NCBI GenBank assembly: GCA_963716945.1
Contig: OY970322.1
Span: forward strand, 900,001-932,000
Direction of reading: 5' to 3'
Source: Candidatus Saccharimonadota bacterium
GTDB taxonomy: Bacteria > Patescibacteriota > Saccharimonadia > Saccharimonadales > UBA4665
Length of the DNA: 32,000 nt
Shown here one piece after another: positions 14,229 through 21,783 of the stretch (position 1 is its first letter; every line of letters starts with the position of its first letter). Under the pieces are notes generated by a model. The model saw only the letters and a program-made list of their open reading frames with translations, ran no database searches and was not told the DNA's origin. The position numbers were made by a program, and so were the translations under genes.

Positions 14229-15917
14229 CTACTCGGCCGCCAAATCCCGCCGGTTGAAGATAAAAGCGCCCAGCACGCACAACACCGCCGCTATAGCCGC
14301 TATAATAGCATTAGTGCCCCAAGCGGGATTAGCGGCCGGAGCGAAAACGACCTGGTTAAGGATTGACGTGTCCAGGATCCAGTGGTTGAGGTTGATGCCG
14401 GAGCTGACCATCGATATCAGGAACGACCATGACAGCACGCCATAAGCCAGCAGGCTGGTCAGCCGCGGACGGACGGCAAAAGTAAAAACTCCGACTCCGA
14501 CGGTTATTATTGCCGGCACCAGGGCGTTGGCCGTAGCCGACAGCAAGGTGCCTGTAGATACGCTCAGGTGCTGGCTGGCGGTACCGGCCCAAACCCCTAT
14601 ACCGGTCGCGGCACCGGCCAGAATTATGACCGAAAGCGCCAGGAAGATCCGGCCGGCCAGCCAGCTCAGCCGGCCGAACGGCTCGACCAGGAAATTATCC
14701 AGATAGCCGTCGGCTTCGTCCCGGCGGATGGCCGACATGCTGCTGGCGGCGTAAGCCATAATGAAAATCATTTGCAAGAAGAAAATAATGCCCAGGAAAG
14801 CTGTCACGCTGGCGGTTTGGGCCTGGTGGGCCAAGCGGTTCAGGATATGCTGGGCGCTGGCCGATTCGGCGAAAGCCTTAGCGGCCGATTTGGTCATCAG
14901 GCCGTAAAGCAGGGCGGTCGCAAAAATTCCCGACAACCAGCCAAGGTTGACGGCCCGCGTCAGGCGGATGGTTGCCGGGAGCGGCGAATTCAACATGGCA
15001 GTCCGCGGTTCGGCCGTGTCATTATCGGCTAAAACACCCTCGCCAAGGTCACGCCGACCGGCGAAAAACACCGCCAGGCCGCCCAATATCACGGTCACGG
15101 CAGCTATCGGCAGCAGCCAGACCGGCCGGCTATCGGCCAAGGGCTGGACCTTTTCTATCCAGCCGAACGGGGTGATGTTCAACAGCCAATGGGCGCTGGT
15201 AATATCACCCACCGCGCGCATCAGAAAGCAAATGCCGAAAACCGTCGCTGCCACGCCGCTAGCCCGCGCCCGGGTCGGCAATATTTGGCTGGCCAAGGCC
15301 CCGGCCATCATGAACAGCGCTATTCCGGCAACTACCGTAAACGCAAATAATAAGGATGCGCTGGCCCTAAAACCTAAACCGTGCGCCTGGCCTATCAACA
15401 AGAAAGCGGCAGCTATAACCACGAAAAAAACGCCCAGGCTTAAGCCCAGGCCGGCTATGGCGTTAGCCGTCGCCCGCCGGGCCGAGGTCGGACCGCTCAA
15501 CAGCACCTCCCAGCGCCCCGCATCTTCTTCGCCGCGCAAAGTTTTAGTGGCTAGCAATAGAGCCCAGACAGCCCCGATCATGACCATGGCGCCCAGAGTA
15601 TTCCAGGTTACGACACTGCCGACCGAAGCGCTACGTTTTATCGGTCCGAGCAATATTTCGATACCGATGTTGTTGCTGAAGGTCGCCACTACCTGCTGGC
15701 GGGCCGCTTCGGTGTGATAAGTATCGACGAACCCGATGGCTTTGGAAGCCACAAAACCACCGAACACCAGGGCCCACAAGGCCGCGCCGCGCATAGTACG
15801 GCGGGCGACGAACCGGCTAATAACGGTTTGCGGCGAGCGCGAGCGCTTCATCGGCAAAGCGGCAGCGGCAGTCTTACTCATCGCCGATGGATTGGTTACG
15901 GACTTCTTTGTCGCCAT
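14229..15917 (-). CDS. ABC-2-type exporter permease (large, ~12 TM)
   Basis: 562 aa and hydrophobic throughout. It lies immediately downstream of, and overlaps, the ATPase gene. The start is uncertain: ATG 15917, or ATG 15881 forming ATGAGTAA with the ATPase stop. Confidence 0.75.
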   Translation of the reverse strand: MATKKSVTNPSAMSKTAAAALPMKRSRSPQTVISRFVARRTMRGAALWALVFGGFVASKAIGFVDTYHTEAARQQVVATFSNNIGIEILLGPIKRSASVGSVVTWNTLGAMVMIGAVWALLLATKTLRGEEDAGRWEVLLSGPTSARRATANAIAGLGLSLGVFFVVIAAAFLLIGQAHGLGFRASASLLFAFTVVAGIALFMMAGALASQILPTRARASGVAATVFGICFLMRAVGDITSAHWLLNITPFGWIEKVQPLADSRPVWLLPIAAVTVILGGLAVFFAGRRDLGEGVLADNDTAEPRTAMLNSPLPATIRLTRAVNLGWLSGIFATALLYGLMTKSAAKAFAESASAQHILNRLAHQAQTASVTAFLGIIFFLQMIFIMAYAASSMSAIRRDEADGYLDNFLVEPFGRLSWLAGRIFLALSVIILAGAATGIGVWAGTASQHLSVSTGTLLSATANALVPAIITVGVGVFTFAVRPRLTSLLAYGVLSWSFLISMVSSGINLNHWILDTSILNQVVFAPAANPAWGTNAIIAAIAAVLCVLGAFIFNRRDLAAE

Positions 15918-16785
15918 ACAGGGACAGGAAAAGCTCCTCGAGCGAGGGTTCGCGGCTTAGCAAGGTCTTGGGGTGGGCCGCGGCGATGACGCCCAGCAGC
16001 TGGTCGACCGGACCATGCACCTGGCAGGTCAGCTGGGAACCGGTTACGCTAACGGCACTGACGCCTTTGAGGTGCTCGACTTTGGGAGGCTTGCCGTCGA
16101 ACGTGGCTTCGACCGTCAGGGCCGACAGGTGGCGCATTTCGGCCAGGGTACCGAGTTCGGCCAGCTTGCCTTCACGCAATATGCCCACCCGGTCGCATAA
16201 GGCCTCAACTTCGCCCAGGATGTGCGACGACAGGAAGACGGTTTGGCCATTGTCCTTGGCTTCCAGGACGGATTGGCGGAAAGCCTGTTCCATAATCGGG
16301 TCCAAGCCGCCGGTCGGTTCGTCCATCAGCAGCAGATCGGCCCTGGTCGACAGGGCGGCGATCAGGTTGATCTTTTGGCGGTTACCCTTGGAATAAGTCC
16401 TGACTTTTTTGTCCGGCTCAAACCGAAACCGCTTGACCAGCTCGTCGCGGTAAGCCGTGTCCACCTGTCCGTGCAGCCGGCCCAGCAGGTGCAGCGTTTC
16501 GGCGCCGGTCAGGTTCGGCCAGAACGACGCTTCGCCCGGTACGTAAGCCAGGCGCCGGTGGGCTTTAATCTTGTCCTTTTGGGCGTCGACACCGAATATT
16601 TCAGCCCGGCCGCCCGAAGGCTTGATCAGGCCCAGCAGCAGCCGCAGGGTAGTCGTTTTGCCAGCGCCGTTGGGGCCTAAATAGCCGAGAATCTCGCCTT
16701 TCTTGACTTCCAAATCCAGCGGTGCCAAAGCCGTGAACGAGCCGTAACGTTTGGTTAAGCCTTTTATGCTGATCGCGATGTCCAT
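15874..16785 (-). CDS. ABC transporter ATP-binding protein
   Basis: 303 aa. Walker A GPNGAGKTT, signature YSKGNRQK, Walker B LLLMDEPTGGLD, H-loop SSH. Confidence 0.9.
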   Translation of the reverse strand: MDIAISIKGLTKRYGSFTALAPLDLEVKKGEILGYLGPNGAGKTTTLRLLLGLIKPSGGRAEIFGVDAQKDKIKAHRRLAYVPGEASFWPNLTGAETLHLLGRLHGQVDTAYRDELVKRFRFEPDKKVRTYSKGNRQKINLIAALSTRADLLLMDEPTGGLDPIMEQAFRQSVLEAKDNGQTVFLSSHILGEVEALCDRVGILREGKLAELGTLAEMRHLSALTVEATFDGKPPKVEHLKGVSAVSVTGSQLTCQVHGPVDQLLGVIAAAHPKTLLSREPSLEELFLSLYGDKEVRNQSIGDE

Positions 16786-16881: not shown

Positions 16882-18756
16882 TTATTGCGGTTTTTCGGCG
16901 ACGTAAGTAATGAACCAGGCGTCCTCATCCGGCTTGGCCTCATAGTCGTCATACTGCTTGACGGGTCCGAAACCGCTGTGGGCCAGCAGCTGCCTTATCT
17001 GCCCTTCGGCGAAGGGGTAGACCCTAAAGTAGCCCAGGTGCTGGTCGGCACCATGCTGTTTGGCAAAATACTCCAGGTACATGAAGTCCTTGCCCGGCTC
17101 GCCCATATGGTCGCGGTTAGGCCGGGCCCGCACATTGCCGGTATAGACCACCTCCGGCGGTACGAAATCATTGGGGCTCCACCGTTCCGGGTCGTAGAAC
17201 TTACGATAATTGCGTTCGTCCAGCACCAGTATGCCGCCCGGTGCCAGCAGCTCCTTGAAATTGGTTAATACCCGCTTCATGTCTTCCGTGCTGCCGAAGC
17301 AAGACAAGGAGTTGCCGAGAATCATGATTATGTCGAAGGTACCCCTCAGTCGGGCCAGCTTGGCGTCAAGGTGCCGCCAGTCAAACATCGTGAAGGACAG
17401 GTCCAGGCCTTTGCTCTTGGCATAATCGACGGCTTGGGCCGCCAGCGTCCATTCGATTTCGTTGGATAGGACATCGCAGTCGCGGGCGTGGTTGGTACGC
17501 AGCCAAACGACCTCGGCACCGACGCCCATACAGGCGTCGAAGACTTTGAGCTTTTCGCGCCCCAGTTTTTGCTGCTGGGCCGCTATGAGCTTATCTAGGA
17601 AGGCGGCCTCGCCTTGCCTGAGACGTTTCGGCGGGTCGACGAACCGTGACCAGGCCTGGGCCAGCGGCGGACTTTCGTACAGGGCCTCCAGCGACCATAA
17701 AATATCTTCCTTATCCAGCTCGTCGATATAATCGAAGACCAGTTTGCCGTGCTGCAGTCCGACGCTTTGGGTGTTGTGGACCAGATGCTTGACATACTGG
17801 ATATAGTCACGCCATAGGGCTTCGCCCGGGCAGAGTAGTTGCAGGGTCCGCTCTTCACTCAAGCCCGGCTCTTCGAAAAGCATGGCGCAAGTCCTGACCC
17901 AAATGCCGATCTCGGTAGTCCAGCCCAAACCGGGGACATAATCATTCAAGGCTTGCTTGGCTATCTGGGGGTCGACTTGTAAAAGGCGGATGCCGTTTTC
18001 CTTGTGCTTGCGCAAGTAGGTTTCCCAGACCGGTTTGTTTGCGGCGTAGTCCTTCTTCAGGACTTTTTGCGAAATCGGTAAGATCCGCGTGGCTTGCGGG
18101 GCGTAACATTGGTGCCCCCATTCATTGACCAGTTCGAACCCGGTGGTCGGCCGGAGATGCTCCAGCAGCGAGGGGTAGGCGCTGAAAAAGTCTCGCGGCA
18201 AATGCGAATCCACCCCGACGTAAGTGTCTTGCAAGCCGTAGAAAACCGACATCAGCATGTCGCGGCGGTGGGTGTTGACGTCATTGAGCTTTTCGCCGCC
18301 TAGCAGTTTGGCAAAGTCGGTTTGCAATGTCGCCAGGTGGCTGGACAGCAATTCCTCGGCCAGGTCTAGCCGCCAGAGCGTTTGTAAGCCGGGGCCTTTG
18401 ACGTCTTTTTCGATTGACTTATTAATAGCCGAAAGTACGGCTTCGGCCGCCTCGGCGCTCGGCCGTACCGAAGGTATCGAAGATGCCGGAAAGATCCCGT
18501 TGTAAGCCGGCGCGCCGGCCGCTGCCGGCATCGGAAAGCCGGCCATTTCATAAATATCTTCGGTGCTCAACTCAAGCTGGGCGGCTATCTTGCTCAGCTT
18601 AATCGGGTCCGGTGAAGCGAACTGGCCCTGTTCAAGTCTGGCGATTGTGGAATAATCGACACCGCTGGCGTGGCCCAGCTGGCGCAGACTGAGCTGCTTG
18701 GCCTCGCGCGCCGAACGAATGAAATCACCGAGTTTAGCATTCCCTATCCGTGACAT
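16882..18756 (-). CDS. Fusion protein: N-terminal XRE-family HTH + unrecognised ~260-aa middle domain + C-terminal SAM-dependent methyltransferase resembling glycine/sarcosine N-methyltransferases
   Basis: 624 aa. HTH: LGDFIRSAREAKQLSLRQLGHASGVDYSTIARLEQGQ (aa 8-45). MTase motif I is VFDACMGVGAE (aa 405-415), followed by FDIIMILGNSLSCFG and APGGILVLDERNYRKFYD. These parallel the GNMT blocks VLDVACGTG / FDAVICLGNSFAHL / GGLLVIDHRNYD that I remember. No (D/N/S)PP(Y/F/W) or PCQ DNA-MTase motif is present. Confidence 0.7.
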   Translation of the reverse strand: MSRIGNAKLGDFIRSAREAKQLSLRQLGHASGVDYSTIARLEQGQFASPDPIKLSKIAAQLELSTEDIYEMAGFPMPAAAGAPAYNGIFPASSIPSVRPSAEAAEAVLSAINKSIEKDVKGPGLQTLWRLDLAEELLSSHLATLQTDFAKLLGGEKLNDVNTHRRDMLMSVFYGLQDTYVGVDSHLPRDFFSAYPSLLEHLRPTTGFELVNEWGHQCYAPQATRILPISQKVLKKDYAANKPVWETYLRKHKENGIRLLQVDPQIAKQALNDYVPGLGWTTEIGIWVRTCAMLFEEPGLSEERTLQLLCPGEALWRDYIQYVKHLVHNTQSVGLQHGKLVFDYIDELDKEDILWSLEALYESPPLAQAWSRFVDPPKRLRQGEAAFLDKLIAAQQQKLGREKLKVFDACMGVGAEVVWLRTNHARDCDVLSNEIEWTLAAQAVDYAKSKGLDLSFTMFDWRHLDAKLARLRGTFDIIMILGNSLSCFGSTEDMKRVLTNFKELLAPGGILVLDERNYRKFYDPERWSPNDFVPPEVVYTGNVRARPNRDHMGEPGKDFMYLEYFAKQHGADQHLGYFRVYPFAEGQIRQLLAHSGFGPVKQYDDYEAKPDEDAWFITYVAEKPQ

Positions 18757-18758
18757 AC

Positions 18759-18774
18759 GTTGAATATCCTCAAC
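18759..18774. promoter_or_regulatory. Operator candidate O1 (GTTGA-N6-TCAAC)
   Basis: GTTGAATATCCTCAAC lies between the -10 and the start codon and covers the SD. Confidence 0.5.
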
Positions 18775-18777
18775 AGC

Positions 18778-18806
18778 AATATAGAACTCGTGTTGAAGAT
18801 TGTCAA
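18778..18806 (-). promoter_or_regulatory. Near-consensus sigma-70 promoter of the XRE-methyltransferase gene
   Basis: Minus strand: TTGACA (18806-18801), 17 nt, TATATT (18783-18778). A GAGGA SD lies in the 21-nt leader before ATG 18756. Confidence 0.6.
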
Positions 18807-18808
18807 CA
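18791..18808. promoter_or_regulatory. Operator candidate O2 (TGTTGA-N6-TCAACA)
   Basis: TGTTGAAGATTGTCAACA overlaps the -35 hexamer. Its centre is 33 bp from the centre of O1. Confidence 0.5.
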
Positions 18809-18825: not shown

Positions 18826-18921
18826 CTACAACGAGCCCAGCAGGGCCAGCGCTACCGCGCCCAGGGCGACGTAAATCCACGGTTTACGGGATTTGTTTTC
18901 GGGACCGTTTTCTTTGGTCAT
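18826..18921 (-). CDS. Possible 31-aa single-TM peptide (below the track size cut-off)
   Basis: Own translation gives MTKENGPENKSRKPWIYVALGAVALALLGSL then stop. The ATG is 16 nt after the stop of the upstream gene. GC3 is about 70 percent by hand count. No convincing SD. Confidence 0.3.
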   Translation of the reverse strand: MTKENGPENKSRKPWIYVALGAVALALLGSL

Positions 18922-18937: not shown

Positions 18938-19357
18938 CTAGTCTTTGGAGGCAGTAATGTTGACCATCCAGTTGATGTTGTACTTATCGGTCAGGGAGCC
19001 GAAGGTATCACCCCAGAATTCCTTTTTGAGAGCCGATTTGACTTCGCCGCCGGCACTGAGCTTGTCGAATATTTCGCGCAGCCTGGTTTCGTCGTCGCCG
19101 CCCAGTGACAGGTCGATTTTGGCGGCGGCCGAGCTGGCCCTCTCGGTGTCGCTGGCCATCAGCTTGATGTCGCCGCCCTCCAGCCGGGCATGCATCAGCC
19201 AATCCTTTTTGGTACCGTTATCGTCCATGCCCGAATCCGGCACGTCGGCATAAGTCTGCACCGTCAGTTCGCCGCCAAAAATACTCTTATAAAACTCCAT
19301 CGCTTCGCGGCAGTTGCCGTTAAAGTACAAATACACGTCCAAGCTTACGTCACTCAT
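18938..19357 (-). CDS. PhnB-like VOC-fold protein (3-demethylubiquinone methyltransferase-like domain family)
   Basis: 139 aa. YLYFNGNCREAMEFYKSIFGGE...LMHARLEGGDIKLMASD...FWGDTFGSLTDKYNINWMVN is the classic PhnB-like pattern. AAGGAG SD. Confidence 0.75.
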   Translation of the reverse strand: MSDVSLDVYLYFNGNCREAMEFYKSIFGGELTVQTYADVPDSGMDDNGTKKDWLMHARLEGGDIKLMASDTERASSAAAKIDLSLGGDDETRLREIFDKLSAGGEVKSALKKEFWGDTFGSLTDKYNINWMVNITASKD

Positions 19358-19692: not shown

Positions 19693-20730
19693 TCAGGCTG
19701 TCGCCGCGTCCGGCAGTTTGGCGCCGCCGGTATTTACTATGAGGATTTTTTTATCCTTGGGAATACCGGCCTGCAGCTGCAGCAACAGCGCCAAGCCGGC
19801 GATACCCGAAGGCTCGCAATTAATCCCCAGCGCATGGGCGAGCTCCAGGGCCTCATCCAGCTTCGCCTCCTCTATTAAATAGACGTTGGACTGAGGCCCG
19901 CAAAAACCGGCGTAGCGGTATAGGCGCATCCACTGTTCGTCGAAATGCACGAACGGCAGGTGCGGCGCGTAGAGTTTGTCAGCCTTGGAATCGGGATTGT
20001 TGGTCGTGGCCGCCATGAAGTTGCAGCCGCGGAGCTGCTCGACGCTGCCCTGGAAGCGGGGGTCGTGTTTCTGCGAAGAAACTTCCTTTTTGTTGACGTT
20101 TAAGACGTTCTCGAAGAGATGCCCGGTGCCAAACGGGATGAAGCAGTAGTCAGGCGACGAGTTAATGATTTCGTAACCCAGCCAGTCATAGAAGCGGGTG
20201 GTCGGGCCCAGCGCCTCGCTGGAGGTTATGTCGAAACCGTCCGGATTATGCGTTAGCTCCAGGATTTCCTGCCAGTCGAGGGCTTTGCGGCTGAGGTCGG
20301 TCTTATAGATTTCGCAGCCCAGCTGTTCCATCCGCAACAGGTTTTCGTCCGATATATTAACATCGACCAGGACCTTGAGGTTAGGCAGCTTGTATTTGCG
20401 CAGTTGGCACTGGATGGCGGTCGCGGCCGAACCGGAGGAAATTATCGACATCGAGGGCAGCGGGCCCCGGGTCTGCCCGGTTTTCTTGGCCATCAGGAAA
20501 TCCCGGTAGGAAACGACTATTTCCCAAGCCATCCGGTCCTTGTGCGTGCCGGTCGGGTTGCTGCTCTCATCCTTGAGCCAGACGTCAGAAAAGCCGGGGA
20601 CTTCGATCTTATATGTCGCAGTGGCCGGAAATTTGGGATTATCGGAGGGGAACTCCGGCTTGAGCGGGTCGTCTTCGGACGCGATTACAATTGATTGCAA
20701 TATGGATTCTTCGGCCGGCGACAAACTCAT
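19693..20730 (-). CDS. Pyridoxal-phosphate-dependent enzyme, fold type II (threonine synthase / cysteine synthase-like)
   Basis: 345 aa. The PLP-lysine motif region DESSNPTGTHKDRMAWE compares with NPTGSFKDR in threonine synthases. IPFGTGHLFENV is the glycine-rich loop. Substrate not inferable. Confidence 0.7.
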   Translation of the reverse strand: MSLSPAEESILQSIVIASEDDPLKPEFPSDNPKFPATATYKIEVPGFSDVWLKDESSNPTGTHKDRMAWEIVVSYRDFLMAKKTGQTRGPLPSMSIISSGSAATAIQCQLRKYKLPNLKVLVDVNISDENLLRMEQLGCEIYKTDLSRKALDWQEILELTHNPDGFDITSSEALGPTTRFYDWLGYEIINSSPDYCFIPFGTGHLFENVLNVNKKEVSSQKHDPRFQGSVEQLRGCNFMAATTNNPDSKADKLYAPHLPFVHFDEQWMRLYRYAGFCGPQSNVYLIEEAKLDEALELAHALGINCEPSGIAGLALLLQLQAGIPKDKKILIVNTGGAKLPDAATA

Positions 20731-20892
20731 AATCTACTTTGCCCTTTGCATCTTGCTAATAAGTTACCAGCAAAAGGCGTTCAGGTACACCTTTTTGTGG
20801 CTCCGGCGGGCCGGCAATTGGCATTTACCGGCTTTTTAGTATAGAATATTGTGACTTAGCTGGAGTTAATCGAGGAAGCCGCTATCGCTTTG

Positions 20893-21783
20893 ATGCCCCC
20901 TGCCGGTGAAAGACCACGTGAGGTTTCGGACCGGCCTGACATTGATGAGTTCATGCGGACCGTGCAAACGGACGTCAGGCATGATTTGGGCGACAACTTT
21001 CTGCCGGGCGTTCACCGGGCTTTTCGGCAGGAGTACGCTTATGCTTTGCTCGACGAGTCGGCCGGGCGGCTGAGGCCCGCCTTGGTCCGGGGCACGGCCG
21101 AGGCTTTCGATTGTGACGGCCCGGCCGTCAGGCAACTGTCCCGAGCCATAGAACTGGTTCACGGGGCCTCGCTGATAGTGGACGATTCCCCAGTCCACGA
21201 CAACAGCTCTTTGCGGCGCGGGCGGCCGGCTTTCCATGTCGAATTCGGAGCCGACAAAGCCGTTAACACGTCTATCGCGATGTTGGCCAGCGCCTTTTAT
21301 GAGTTTTCGGCAATTGAGGATGCCGGCGGCGAGCTGGTGCAATATGCCTCCAGAAAAATCGGCGACCGGGGCATGTGTCTCGGCCAGGCCATGGACCTTG
21401 CCGGTTTCGGTGAGGACGGGGAACCGGTAACGCTGGCGAAACTCGACGACACGGCCGTCAAGAAGACCGGTTCGGCATTCGAGATAGCCGTCGTCGGCGT
21501 AGCGATTATGCGGCGGGCGCAACCCGGCATTATGAGCGCGCTGGAAGATTATTCGCGCTTACTGGGCATCGCTTTCCAGGTCAAGGATGACCTGCTCGAC
21601 GAAGGCGACGGCCGCGGCAAGAACAGTTACCTGGAACACCTGGGCGAACAAGGTGCCAGGCAGCATTTCGACGGCTGCTCGGCCATGGCTGGCGAAGCGC
21701 TTGACGGTTTGCCGGACGGCCTGGACACCGCCAGGCTAAGGGAAATCATTGCCTATGTCGGCCGGCAACTGGCCGGGCATTAA
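20893..21783 (+). CDS. Polyprenyl (farnesyl/geranylgeranyl) diphosphate synthase family
   Basis: The track starts at TTG 20890 and ATG 20893 follows directly. First Asp-rich motif: LIVDDSPVHDNSSLRRGRP. Second: FQVKDDLLD. Confidence 0.8.
   Translation: MPPAGERPREVSDRPDIDEFMRTVQTDVRHDLGDNFLPGVHRAFRQEYAYALLDESAGRLRPALVRGTAEAFDCDGPAVRQLSRAIELVHGASLIVDDSPVHDNSSLRRGRPAFHVEFGADKAVNTSIAMLASAFYEFSAIEDAGGELVQYASRKIGDRGMCLGQAMDLAGFGEDGEPVTLAKLDDTAVKKTGSAFEIAVVGVAIMRRAQPGIMSALEDYSRLLGIAFQVKDDLLDEGDGRGKNSYLEHLGEQGARQHFDGCSAMAGEALDGLPDGLDTARLREIIAYVGRQLAGH

Follow-up and report, generated by a model that had tools for sequence, protein, structure and literature searches.

An XRE-type DNA-binding domain fused to a mobile methyltransferase cassette: a putative self-regulating enzyme of a Candidatus Saccharimonadota bacterium

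A stretch of 32,000 nucleotides from the genome of a Candidatus Saccharimonadota bacterium (contig OY970322.1, positions 900,001 to 932,000; hereafter the window, in whose coordinates positions are given unless another locus is named) contains one unbroken open reading frame (ORF), starting with ATG, that encodes a protein of 624 amino acids (aa). The protein joins an XRE-type helix-turn-helix (HTH), a conserved middle domain and a class I S-adenosylmethionine (SAM)-dependent methyltransferase of the glycine N-methyltransferase (GNMT) and glycine/sarcosine N-methyltransferase (GSMT) type, and its gene is preceded by a strong promoter with two predicted operators (Table 1). Pfam HTH_3 covers aa 13–67 with an E-value of 2e-9 and a score of 37.7 bits against a cutoff of 23, and HTH_31 is found with an E-value of 3e-6 and 27.7 bits against a cutoff of 27. 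Among the structures of the Protein Data Bank (PDB), the HTH matches the XRE regulators 2OFY and C.AhdI, and its blocks within aa 11–40 are modelled by AlphaFold2 (AF2) with a predicted local distance difference test (pLDDT) of 84–93; matches to the PADLOC models Control_protein (E = 0.003) and capH (E = 6e-6) are weak. In the linker that follows, aa 71–120 reach a pLDDT of only 26–52 and align poorly to the relatives of the protein.

Table 1. Coordinates of the gene, its domains and control elements, and of neighbouring and related loci (positions refer to the window unless a locus with the prefix L is named)
Feature	Position	Strand	Basis or remark
Complete gene	16882..18756	-	stop codon 16882-16884; ORF list, homologues, purifying selection against L002
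XRE HTH, aa 8-70	18547..18735	-	Pfam HTH_3 and HTH_31, PDB XRE regulators, AF2
Linker, low-complexity, probably flexible, with one helix, aa 71-125	18382..18546	-	AF2 pLDDT, poor alignment to relatives
New conserved alpha/beta middle domain, aa 126-360	17677..18381	-	profile negatives, AF2, Foldseek, conserved columns
GNMT/GSMT-type class I SAM-dependent methyltransferase, aa 361-624	16885..17676	-	NCBIfam NF051855, PDB, invariant residues
Sigma-70-type promoter	18778..18806	-	TTGACA (18801-18806), 17-nt spacer, TATATT (18778-18783)
Operator O1 (predicted), palindrome TGTTGACAATCTTCAACA	18791..18808	.	overlaps -35 hexamer; exact GTTGA-N6-TCAAC
Operator O2 (predicted), palindrome TGTTGAGGATATTCAACG	18758..18775	.	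between -10 box and start codon; exact match
ABC-2 exporter ATPase and 562-aa permease	14229-15917 and 15874-16785	-	96 bp downstream of regulator gene
VOC/PhnB-like gene	18938-19357	-	upstream of regulator gene
PALP-family enzyme dependent on pyridoxal phosphate (PLP)	19693-20730	-	orphan
Polyprenyl synthase	20890-21783; L001 652-2949	+ (window)	35% identical to each other
DUF2600	L003 4446-5561; L010 12537-13661		34% identical to each other
Neighbours of P0159 in L024	3364-7209; 7276-10386	+; -	importer operon; patatin and E1/E2/JAB pair typical of type II CBASS

The C-terminal domain is matched over nearly its entire length by the NCBIfam model for GSMT, NF051855 (aa 365–622, model positions 24–256 of 259, E = 7e-21). 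The window protein scores 75 bits and its relatives 68–117 bits against an equivalog cutoff of 350 bits; judged by its sequence, the domain is related to the GSMT equivalog without being a member of it and constitutes a distinct subfamily. The best solved structures are those of GSMT (5H02/5GWX, E = 2e-10, aa 402–622), followed by GNMTs, and the generic class I methyltransferase models of Pfam cover aa 405–512, Methyltransf_25 (aa 405–508) scoring 26.3 bits in the window protein, against a cutoff of 27, and 40–48 bits in the relatives. All the hallmarks of class I SAM methyltransferases are present, namely DACMGVG (407–413), N432-E433, D459-W460 and LGNS (480–483). In 70 methyltransferase-bearing representatives with a pairwise identity of at most 50%, the residues D407, G411/G413, N432-E433, W460, G481-N482-S483, D513-x-R515-N516-F/Y517, Y538, W369 and R378 are invariant. 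These include R515 (in the D-x-R-N-Y motif), N482 (in LGNS) and Y538 (in Y-C-G), the equivalents of which bind the glycine substrate in the GNMT and GSMT structures. Such invariance of both the SAM and the acceptor pockets speaks for a functioning enzyme whose acceptors fall into a single conserved class. A regular-expression search of the 624-aa protein for the DNA-methyltransferase motifs [DNS]PP[YFWH], PC[QK] and ENV found none of them. The PADLOC model mad2, which represents the N6 DNA methylase of the MADS system, matches the Rossmann core only (E = 2e-7 to 3e-15, 28–54 bits, with 28 bits in the window protein), and is outscored in the same proteins by the GSMT model by 50–60 bits, over the whole domain.

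Between the HTH and the methyltransferase, at aa ~75–360, no family of Pfam, NCBIfam or PADLOC is recognized, and in the 113 representatives scanned, Pfam likewise places no family over the middle domain. When 1.84 billion representatives were searched exhaustively with a profile, 205 clusters with the middle domain were nevertheless retrieved at E <= 1e-3, as against five proteins found by a word-indexed search with the 32-sequence profile of the domain, which is far less sensitive. The full-length AF2 model has a pLDDT of 63 and, submitted to Foldseek, matched generic methyltransferases throughout, and the middle domain was consequently modelled alone. The resulting model, built from a 32-sequence alignment, is an α/β structure with a pLDDT of 90.2 and a predicted template modelling score (pTM) of 0.87. 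Its top Foldseek matches in the PDB are the Escherichia coli phosphatidylserine synthase PssA, the phospholipase D (PLD)-type nuclease domain of SauUSI, a Streptomyces PLD and the sugar-binding domain of TrmB. The matches to the PLD fold are marginal, with E-values of 0.03–0.2, probabilities of 0.7–0.89 and template modelling (TM) scores of 0.38–0.43; nothing in the PDB falls under an E-value of 1e-3, and a search of the viral folds in BFVD found nothing. The protein lacks the HKD motif (H.K....D), which sets it apart from the canonical PLD enzymes, as well as G[ST].N. Near-invariant positions of the domain are Y178, G180, D182, S183, P186, R223, D235 and H250. On the strength of the model, this is a new domain with a probable PLD-like topology. 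A 47-residue profile match to the homing endonuclease I-Bth0305I in the PDB (E = 0.014) was dismissed as chance, since the fold search returned no Vsr or restriction-endonuclease fold.

An earlier note on this DNA had divided the protein into an XRE domain, a middle region without any recognized motif and a methyltransferase of the small-molecule GNMT/GSMT type rather than one acting on DNA. Profile searches of Pfam, NCBIfam and the PDB agree with this layout in all three parts: HTH_3 is above its cutoff, the curated libraries are silent over the middle region, and NF051855 spans a whole domain of which mad2 matches the core alone. The reported absence of DPPY/NPPY and PCQ motifs was reproduced, and no restriction, helicase or nuclease partner lies near the gene, as the note had also stated.

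The same note regarded the fusion as unusual and held that it would fall if the gene proved to be a frameshift or assembly artefact. With the full protein as query, only seven matching proteins were found in a collection of 5.8 billion sequences, and the HTH fusion is seen three times: in the window, in P0002 on the short Logan contig L002 and in P0003 at locus L001. An HTH is found in none of 149 other representatives, 113 of which were scanned with Pfam. That separate genes were joined here by an assembly error or frameshift, or persist as a decaying pseudogene fusion, might be supposed from the L002 sequence, the sole full-length orthologue, which is called as two ORFs in its assembly. The full 624-aa query is, however, colinear with L002 in tblastn, in two frames, and the break consists of one extra C in the C-run ACCCCGT (L002 2215–2225), the removal of which restores a read-through of 623 aa with 76% identity to the window protein; the extra C was probably introduced during sequencing or assembly and is hardly the mark of a true pseudogene. 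Between the window and L002, the proportion of nonsynonymous differences (pN, method of Nei and Gojobori) is 0.23 in the HTH, 0.19 in the linker, 0.10 in the middle domain and 0.15 in the methyltransferase, at a proportion of synonymous differences (pS) of ~0.85. Since pN lies far below pS in each of them, all parts of the protein are under purifying selection, the middle domain being the most constrained. The window ORF is moreover unbroken on a contig of 1.1 Mb, and the junction of the middle domain and the methyltransferase is kept in 70 of the 149 representatives. The artefact explanation is effectively refuted, and the fusion is genuine and very rare.

The promoter upstream of the gene matches the sigma-70 consensus at 11 of 12 positions and is one of two such sites within 6 kb, the only one on the strand of the gene. 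Two palindromes to which the earlier note had drawn attention are real: GTTGA-N6-TCAAC occurs in exactly two copies in the 32-kb window, at 18759–18774 and 18792–18807, and relaxed palindrome searches of the window revealed no further convincing site. The centres of O1 and O2, which share the form TGTTG-N8-CAACA, are 33 bp apart, and O2 contains the Shine-Dalgarno sequence GAGGA (18767–18771). The half-sites of O1 are kept upstream of the orthologues in L002 and L001, where the flanking DNA has diverged, and TGTTGAGGA-N3-TCAAC, in O2, is invariant in all three orthologous promoters; both elements hold the same positions upstream of orthologues that are 76% (L002) and 51–55% (L001) identical to the window protein. 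Because this promoter and operator footprint is conserved upstream of both orthologues, the gene is most likely under repression by its own product, which is the strongest functional inference available and gives more weight to the autoregulator that the earlier note had envisaged. A scan of the window with Rfam detected no riboswitch or other RNA, and the window contains no tRNAs.

The orthologue P0003 retains the HTH, the middle domain and the operators and is devoid of the methyltransferase domain. The stop codon of its gene has a 4-bp overlap with a translationally coupled gene for ornithine cyclodeaminase (L001 9032–10060, plus strand; 376 bits against a cutoff of 350), so that, in practice, one enzyme has taken the place of another behind a common set of HTH, middle domain and operators. 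This arrangement, which is the basis for viewing the window protein as a regulator with an attached cargo, shows that an enzyme of amino-acid metabolism can be placed under the control of the HTH and the middle domain.

Outside these three proteins, the middle domain and the methyltransferase form a widespread mobile cassette, which had escaped the earlier note. The survey of architectures proposed there agrees that the combination of XRE and a GNMT-like enzyme is very rare; the cassette is otherwise associated with cyclases, a caspase, membrane anchors and permeases. An N-terminal membrane anchor with the middle domain is the architecture of 64 of the 149 representatives, and a further 46 add the methyltransferase to it; soluble proteins make up the rest, 24 with both cassette domains and 15, a class that includes fragments, with the middle domain only. 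N-terminal membrane helices are thus present in 110 of the 149, and some of the anchors consist of two helices. In the clade closest to the window protein, represented in soil Actinomycetota and Solirubrobacterales, the commonest form ends in a class III cyclase (Pfam Guanylate_cyc, E = 2e-7; PADLOC PycC, E = 2e-6) that is closer to the mycobacterial LipJ-type cyclase than to PycC. An EACC1-type caspase is found at the N-terminus of one representative, and in two others a PotC-like permease of the ATP-binding cassette (ABC) type is fused to the middle domain alone. A further relative, P0159 at locus L024, lies in a tight operon, with overlapping genes, together with a PotABCD-like ABC importer, the binding protein of which has its closest counterparts among proteins that bind γ-aminobutyric acid (GABA), opines and polyamines (E = 1e-52 to 1e-61); neither the N-terminal 200 aa of P0159 nor the product of its upstream gene has relatives in the PDB. 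All-against-all clustering of the neighbours yielded no conserved partner except DUF2600 and a small XRE gene, the latter being located upstream of the cassette gene in four cyclase loci.

The explanation that we prefer, and hold with somewhat less than even confidence, is that of a self-contained, negatively autoregulated one-component protein whose fused sensor-enzyme cassette would act on a small amine-type metabolite with SAM. A dimer of the XRE HTH would bind the two TGTTG-N8-CAACA operators in its own strong promoter region, one at the -35 box and one at the ribosome-binding site, and the protein would thereby set its own level. The remainder would be a mobile two-domain cassette in which a domain of PLD-like fold is coupled to a catalytically intact SAM methyltransferase of the GNMT/GSMT type, and the most likely role of which is the binding and N-methylation of a small amine or of a metabolite similar to an amino acid. 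When the cassette is occupied by the acceptor, by SAM or S-adenosylhomocysteine (SAH), or by both, DNA binding would be expected to change, making the supply of the enzyme follow its substrate, with the regulator and the regulated enzyme in one chain. We infer the small-amine class of the substrate from the GNMT-type acceptor pocket, the fusions to PotC-like permeases, the importer operon of P0159 and the ornithine cyclodeaminase coupled to P0003. By analogy with the fold of the TrmB sugar-binding domain, the middle domain could serve as the effector domain.

Several observations weigh against this explanation. The likeness of the middle domain to the TrmB and PLD folds is marginal (E > 0.02, TM ~0.4), and its invariant polar residues (D-S-H, R, D and H) look more catalytic than suited to a regulatory pocket. 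The methyltransferase scores far under the GSMT equivalog cutoff and may thus use an acceptor that is no amino acid; of the importer operon there is one example only. Many relatives, furthermore, are found in defence or mobile contexts, fused to a cyclase or a caspase, a pattern more in keeping with a role in conflict than in metabolism. The clues to function are split in two directions, one of small-amine metabolism and the other of conflict and defence.

Under the second of these, the cassette would sense or make an infection-related small molecule, or respond to a change in SAM status, as part of an anti-phage or other conflict module whose outputs include synthesis of cyclic nucleotide monophosphates (cNMP), proteolysis by a caspase and membrane anchoring, and, for the window protein, transcription or the tight self-repression of a potentially harmful enzyme. 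The cyclases of the closest full-cassette relatives point in this direction, as do the EACC1-type caspase, the small XRE genes upstream of the cyclase loci and the patchy distribution of the cassette with no synteny. At a distance of 26 bp, a gene of the PycTM family, which comprises membrane effectors of Pycsar (L003 10180–10755, minus strand; also in L004, L005 and L015), adjoins the 3' end of the gene for the cyclase-fused P0004, and the neighbours of cassette genes in various loci include AbiE; DndB and TacA with a recombinase; TIR_2; a 1300-aa SIR2_2 protein with an integrase; patatin with a CBASS-like E1/E2/JAB pair; and integrases, TrwC relaxase, a C5 methylase and SspH. These neighbourhoods are, however, anecdotal, and the window, L001 and L002 loci contain no recognized defence genes. 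PycTM belongs to one lineage only, where it is convergent to the cyclase gene, and is absent from the other cyclase-fused loci searched, while the cyclase itself resembles the LipJ type more than PycC; scans of viral contigs gave no matches and no PADLOC model covers the cassette beyond the generic Rossmann match. We consider this explanation, the main rival, unlikely, and slightly more so its extended form, in which the cassette would be an unrecognized sensor or signal-generating module of prokaryotic conflict systems that detects or produces a methylated small molecule, or senses SAM status, with interchangeable outputs (cyclic-nucleotide synthesis with a PycTM-type effector, caspase proteolysis, membrane action or transcription) and the window protein its transcription-coupled version. 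Another step down in probability is a reading in which the HTH would be a mere autoregulatory handle in the style of C proteins or M.SsoII and the cassette would modify a macromolecule or a lipid, the PLD-like domain handling nucleic acid or phospholipid and the methyltransferase acting on DNA, RNA, protein or a lipid head group. The weak matches of the HTH to control proteins of restriction-modification (R-M) systems (Control_protein and C.AhdI), the mad2 match to the Rossmann core, the ranking of phosphatidylserine synthase, PLD and the SauUSI nuclease domain as best folds of the middle domain, and the membrane helices that would place the cassette at the membrane in most representatives are compatible with this reading. 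Against it stand the lack of DPPY/NPPY, PCQ, ENV and HKD motifs, the advantage of the GSMT model over mad2 across a domain that includes the acceptor-pocket residues, and the lack of a nuclease, helicase or restriction partner nearby.

The genes around the regulator offer a further alternative, in part put forward in the earlier note, namely a local pathway regulated by the gene and composed of the PLP enzyme, the VOC/PhnB-like gene and/or the ABC-2 exporter. The window neighbours are ordinary genes, namely the exporter pair downstream, and upstream the VOC/YjdN-like gene, a small membrane protein, the orphan PALP enzyme and the polyprenyl synthase. The genes of the proposed pathway are close together on the same strand, the PLP enzyme is an orphan of the PALP family, with no more than a remote relationship to the synthases of threonine or cysteine (35 bits, where the cutoffs exceed 260), and no strong promoter was called inside the 96-bp gap to the ABC ATPase gene. 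The two exporter genes, which overlap by 44 nt, counted from the first in-frame start codon, may be co-transcribed with the regulator gene. The latter nevertheless has its own strong promoter, no further copy of the operator was found near the window neighbours or anywhere else in the window, and the PLP, VOC/PhnB-like and ABC-2 genes are absent beside the orthologues in L001 and L002, whose flanks share no genes with the window except a polyprenyl synthase in L001; in L002, the gene stands alone between purine and pyrimidine genes. Since synteny is not conserved among the three orthologues, the gene appears to form a self-sufficient unit and to move independently, and a local pathway is very doubtful. 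Of the earlier interpretation, the anatomy, the enzyme class, the rarity of the fusion and the idea of an autoregulator are therefore retained, and the pathway with the PLP enzyme and the PhnB-like gene finds no support.

Two further features of these loci deserve mention. A 31-codon ORF with a hydrophobic tail, MTKENGPENKSRKPWIYVALGAVALALLGSL (18826–18921, minus strand), is located between the VOC/PhnB-like gene and the regulator promoter, with a hairpin inside it at 18870–18888, and could encode a small membrane peptide or be due to chance. In four unrelated loci, terpenoid-type genes, which encode polyprenyl synthases or DUF2600 proteins, are separated from a cassette gene by no more than 2–5 kb, and this proximity could be a coincidence or a weak functional link.

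If the model of an autorepressed sensor-enzyme holds, it would define a new protein domain family of ~200 clusters without a Pfam entry, paired with a distinct and strictly conserved branch of GNMT-type methyltransferases, and would offer a compact and testable example in which an enzyme and its repressor are one protein and the operators are clear. Since the cassette is also found on cyclases, a caspase, membrane anchors and polyamine-type permeases, the identity of its ligand would explain many unannotated signalling and defence proteins of soil Actinomycetota and other bacteria, and could reveal a new methylated metabolite or signal.

Compared with the systems that it resembles, the window protein is not a member of the GSMT equivalog, of the DNA methylases, of the canonical PLD enzymes or of Pycsar. 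Its C-terminal domain aligns end to end with GSMT (5H02/5GWX) and GNMT (1XVA, 1R74) and shares with them motif I (DAxxGxG), the acidic residue of β2, the DW and LGNS motifs, D-E/Q-RNY, the Y-C/G motif and the N-terminal W..F/Y..R, all of which are invariant in the family. It differs from them in a score far below the equivalog cutoff, in a family-specific invariant N-E at the end of β2 and in that the methyltransferase is invariably preceded by the new middle domain and, in the window protein, also joined to an HTH. Pycsar pairs a pyrimidine cyclase, PycC, with an adjacent effector, PycTM or PycTIR. A Pycsar-like feature of the wider family is the sister clade with a C-terminal class III cyclase and its weak PycC matches, together with the adjacent PycTM gene in one lineage. 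The window protein, however, has no cyclase domain and the window no PycTM-like gene, the relative P0004 being the only one with both; PycC proteins with this N-terminal cassette are not described in the literature searched, in which nothing relevant was found on Pycsar-methyltransferase or HTH-GNMT fusions either. The HTH also weakly matches the CBASS regulator CapH. TrmB (2F5T, 3QPH), a sugar-responsive regulator of archaea that reportedly controls an ABC sugar importer, also combines a DNA-binding head with a non-catalytic effector-binding domain of PLD fold, and the leading Foldseek matches of the middle domain include its sugar-binding domain (probability 0.87, TM 0.42–0.43). This similarity is nevertheless marginal (E = 0.2) and without a counterpart in sequence, the head of TrmB is a winged helix rather than an XRE HTH, TrmB carries no enzyme domain, and the invariant polar residues of the middle domain suggest catalysis. 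Self-regulating combinations of an HTH with an enzyme are exemplified by methylases of the M.SsoII/M.EcoRII type, which have an N-terminal repressor region, by the C proteins of R-M systems, and by Ada, BirA and PutA. The likeness lies in an N-terminal DNA-binding module that represses the promoter of its own enzyme, as would be expected here from predicted operators that overlap the -35 box and the ribosome-binding site, and the difference in a small-molecule methyltransferase of the GNMT type, an extra domain of 235 aa and the absence of a restriction partner. An R-M C protein proper is a stand-alone protein of ~80 aa encoded beside the R and M genes, with C-boxes, whereas the window protein is a 624-aa fusion with no R or M genes nearby and with weak matches to such proteins. 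The fusion of an enzyme and its regulator is of a known kind, built here on an undescribed domain family, and the cassette that it carries is probably a new sensor-enzyme unit.

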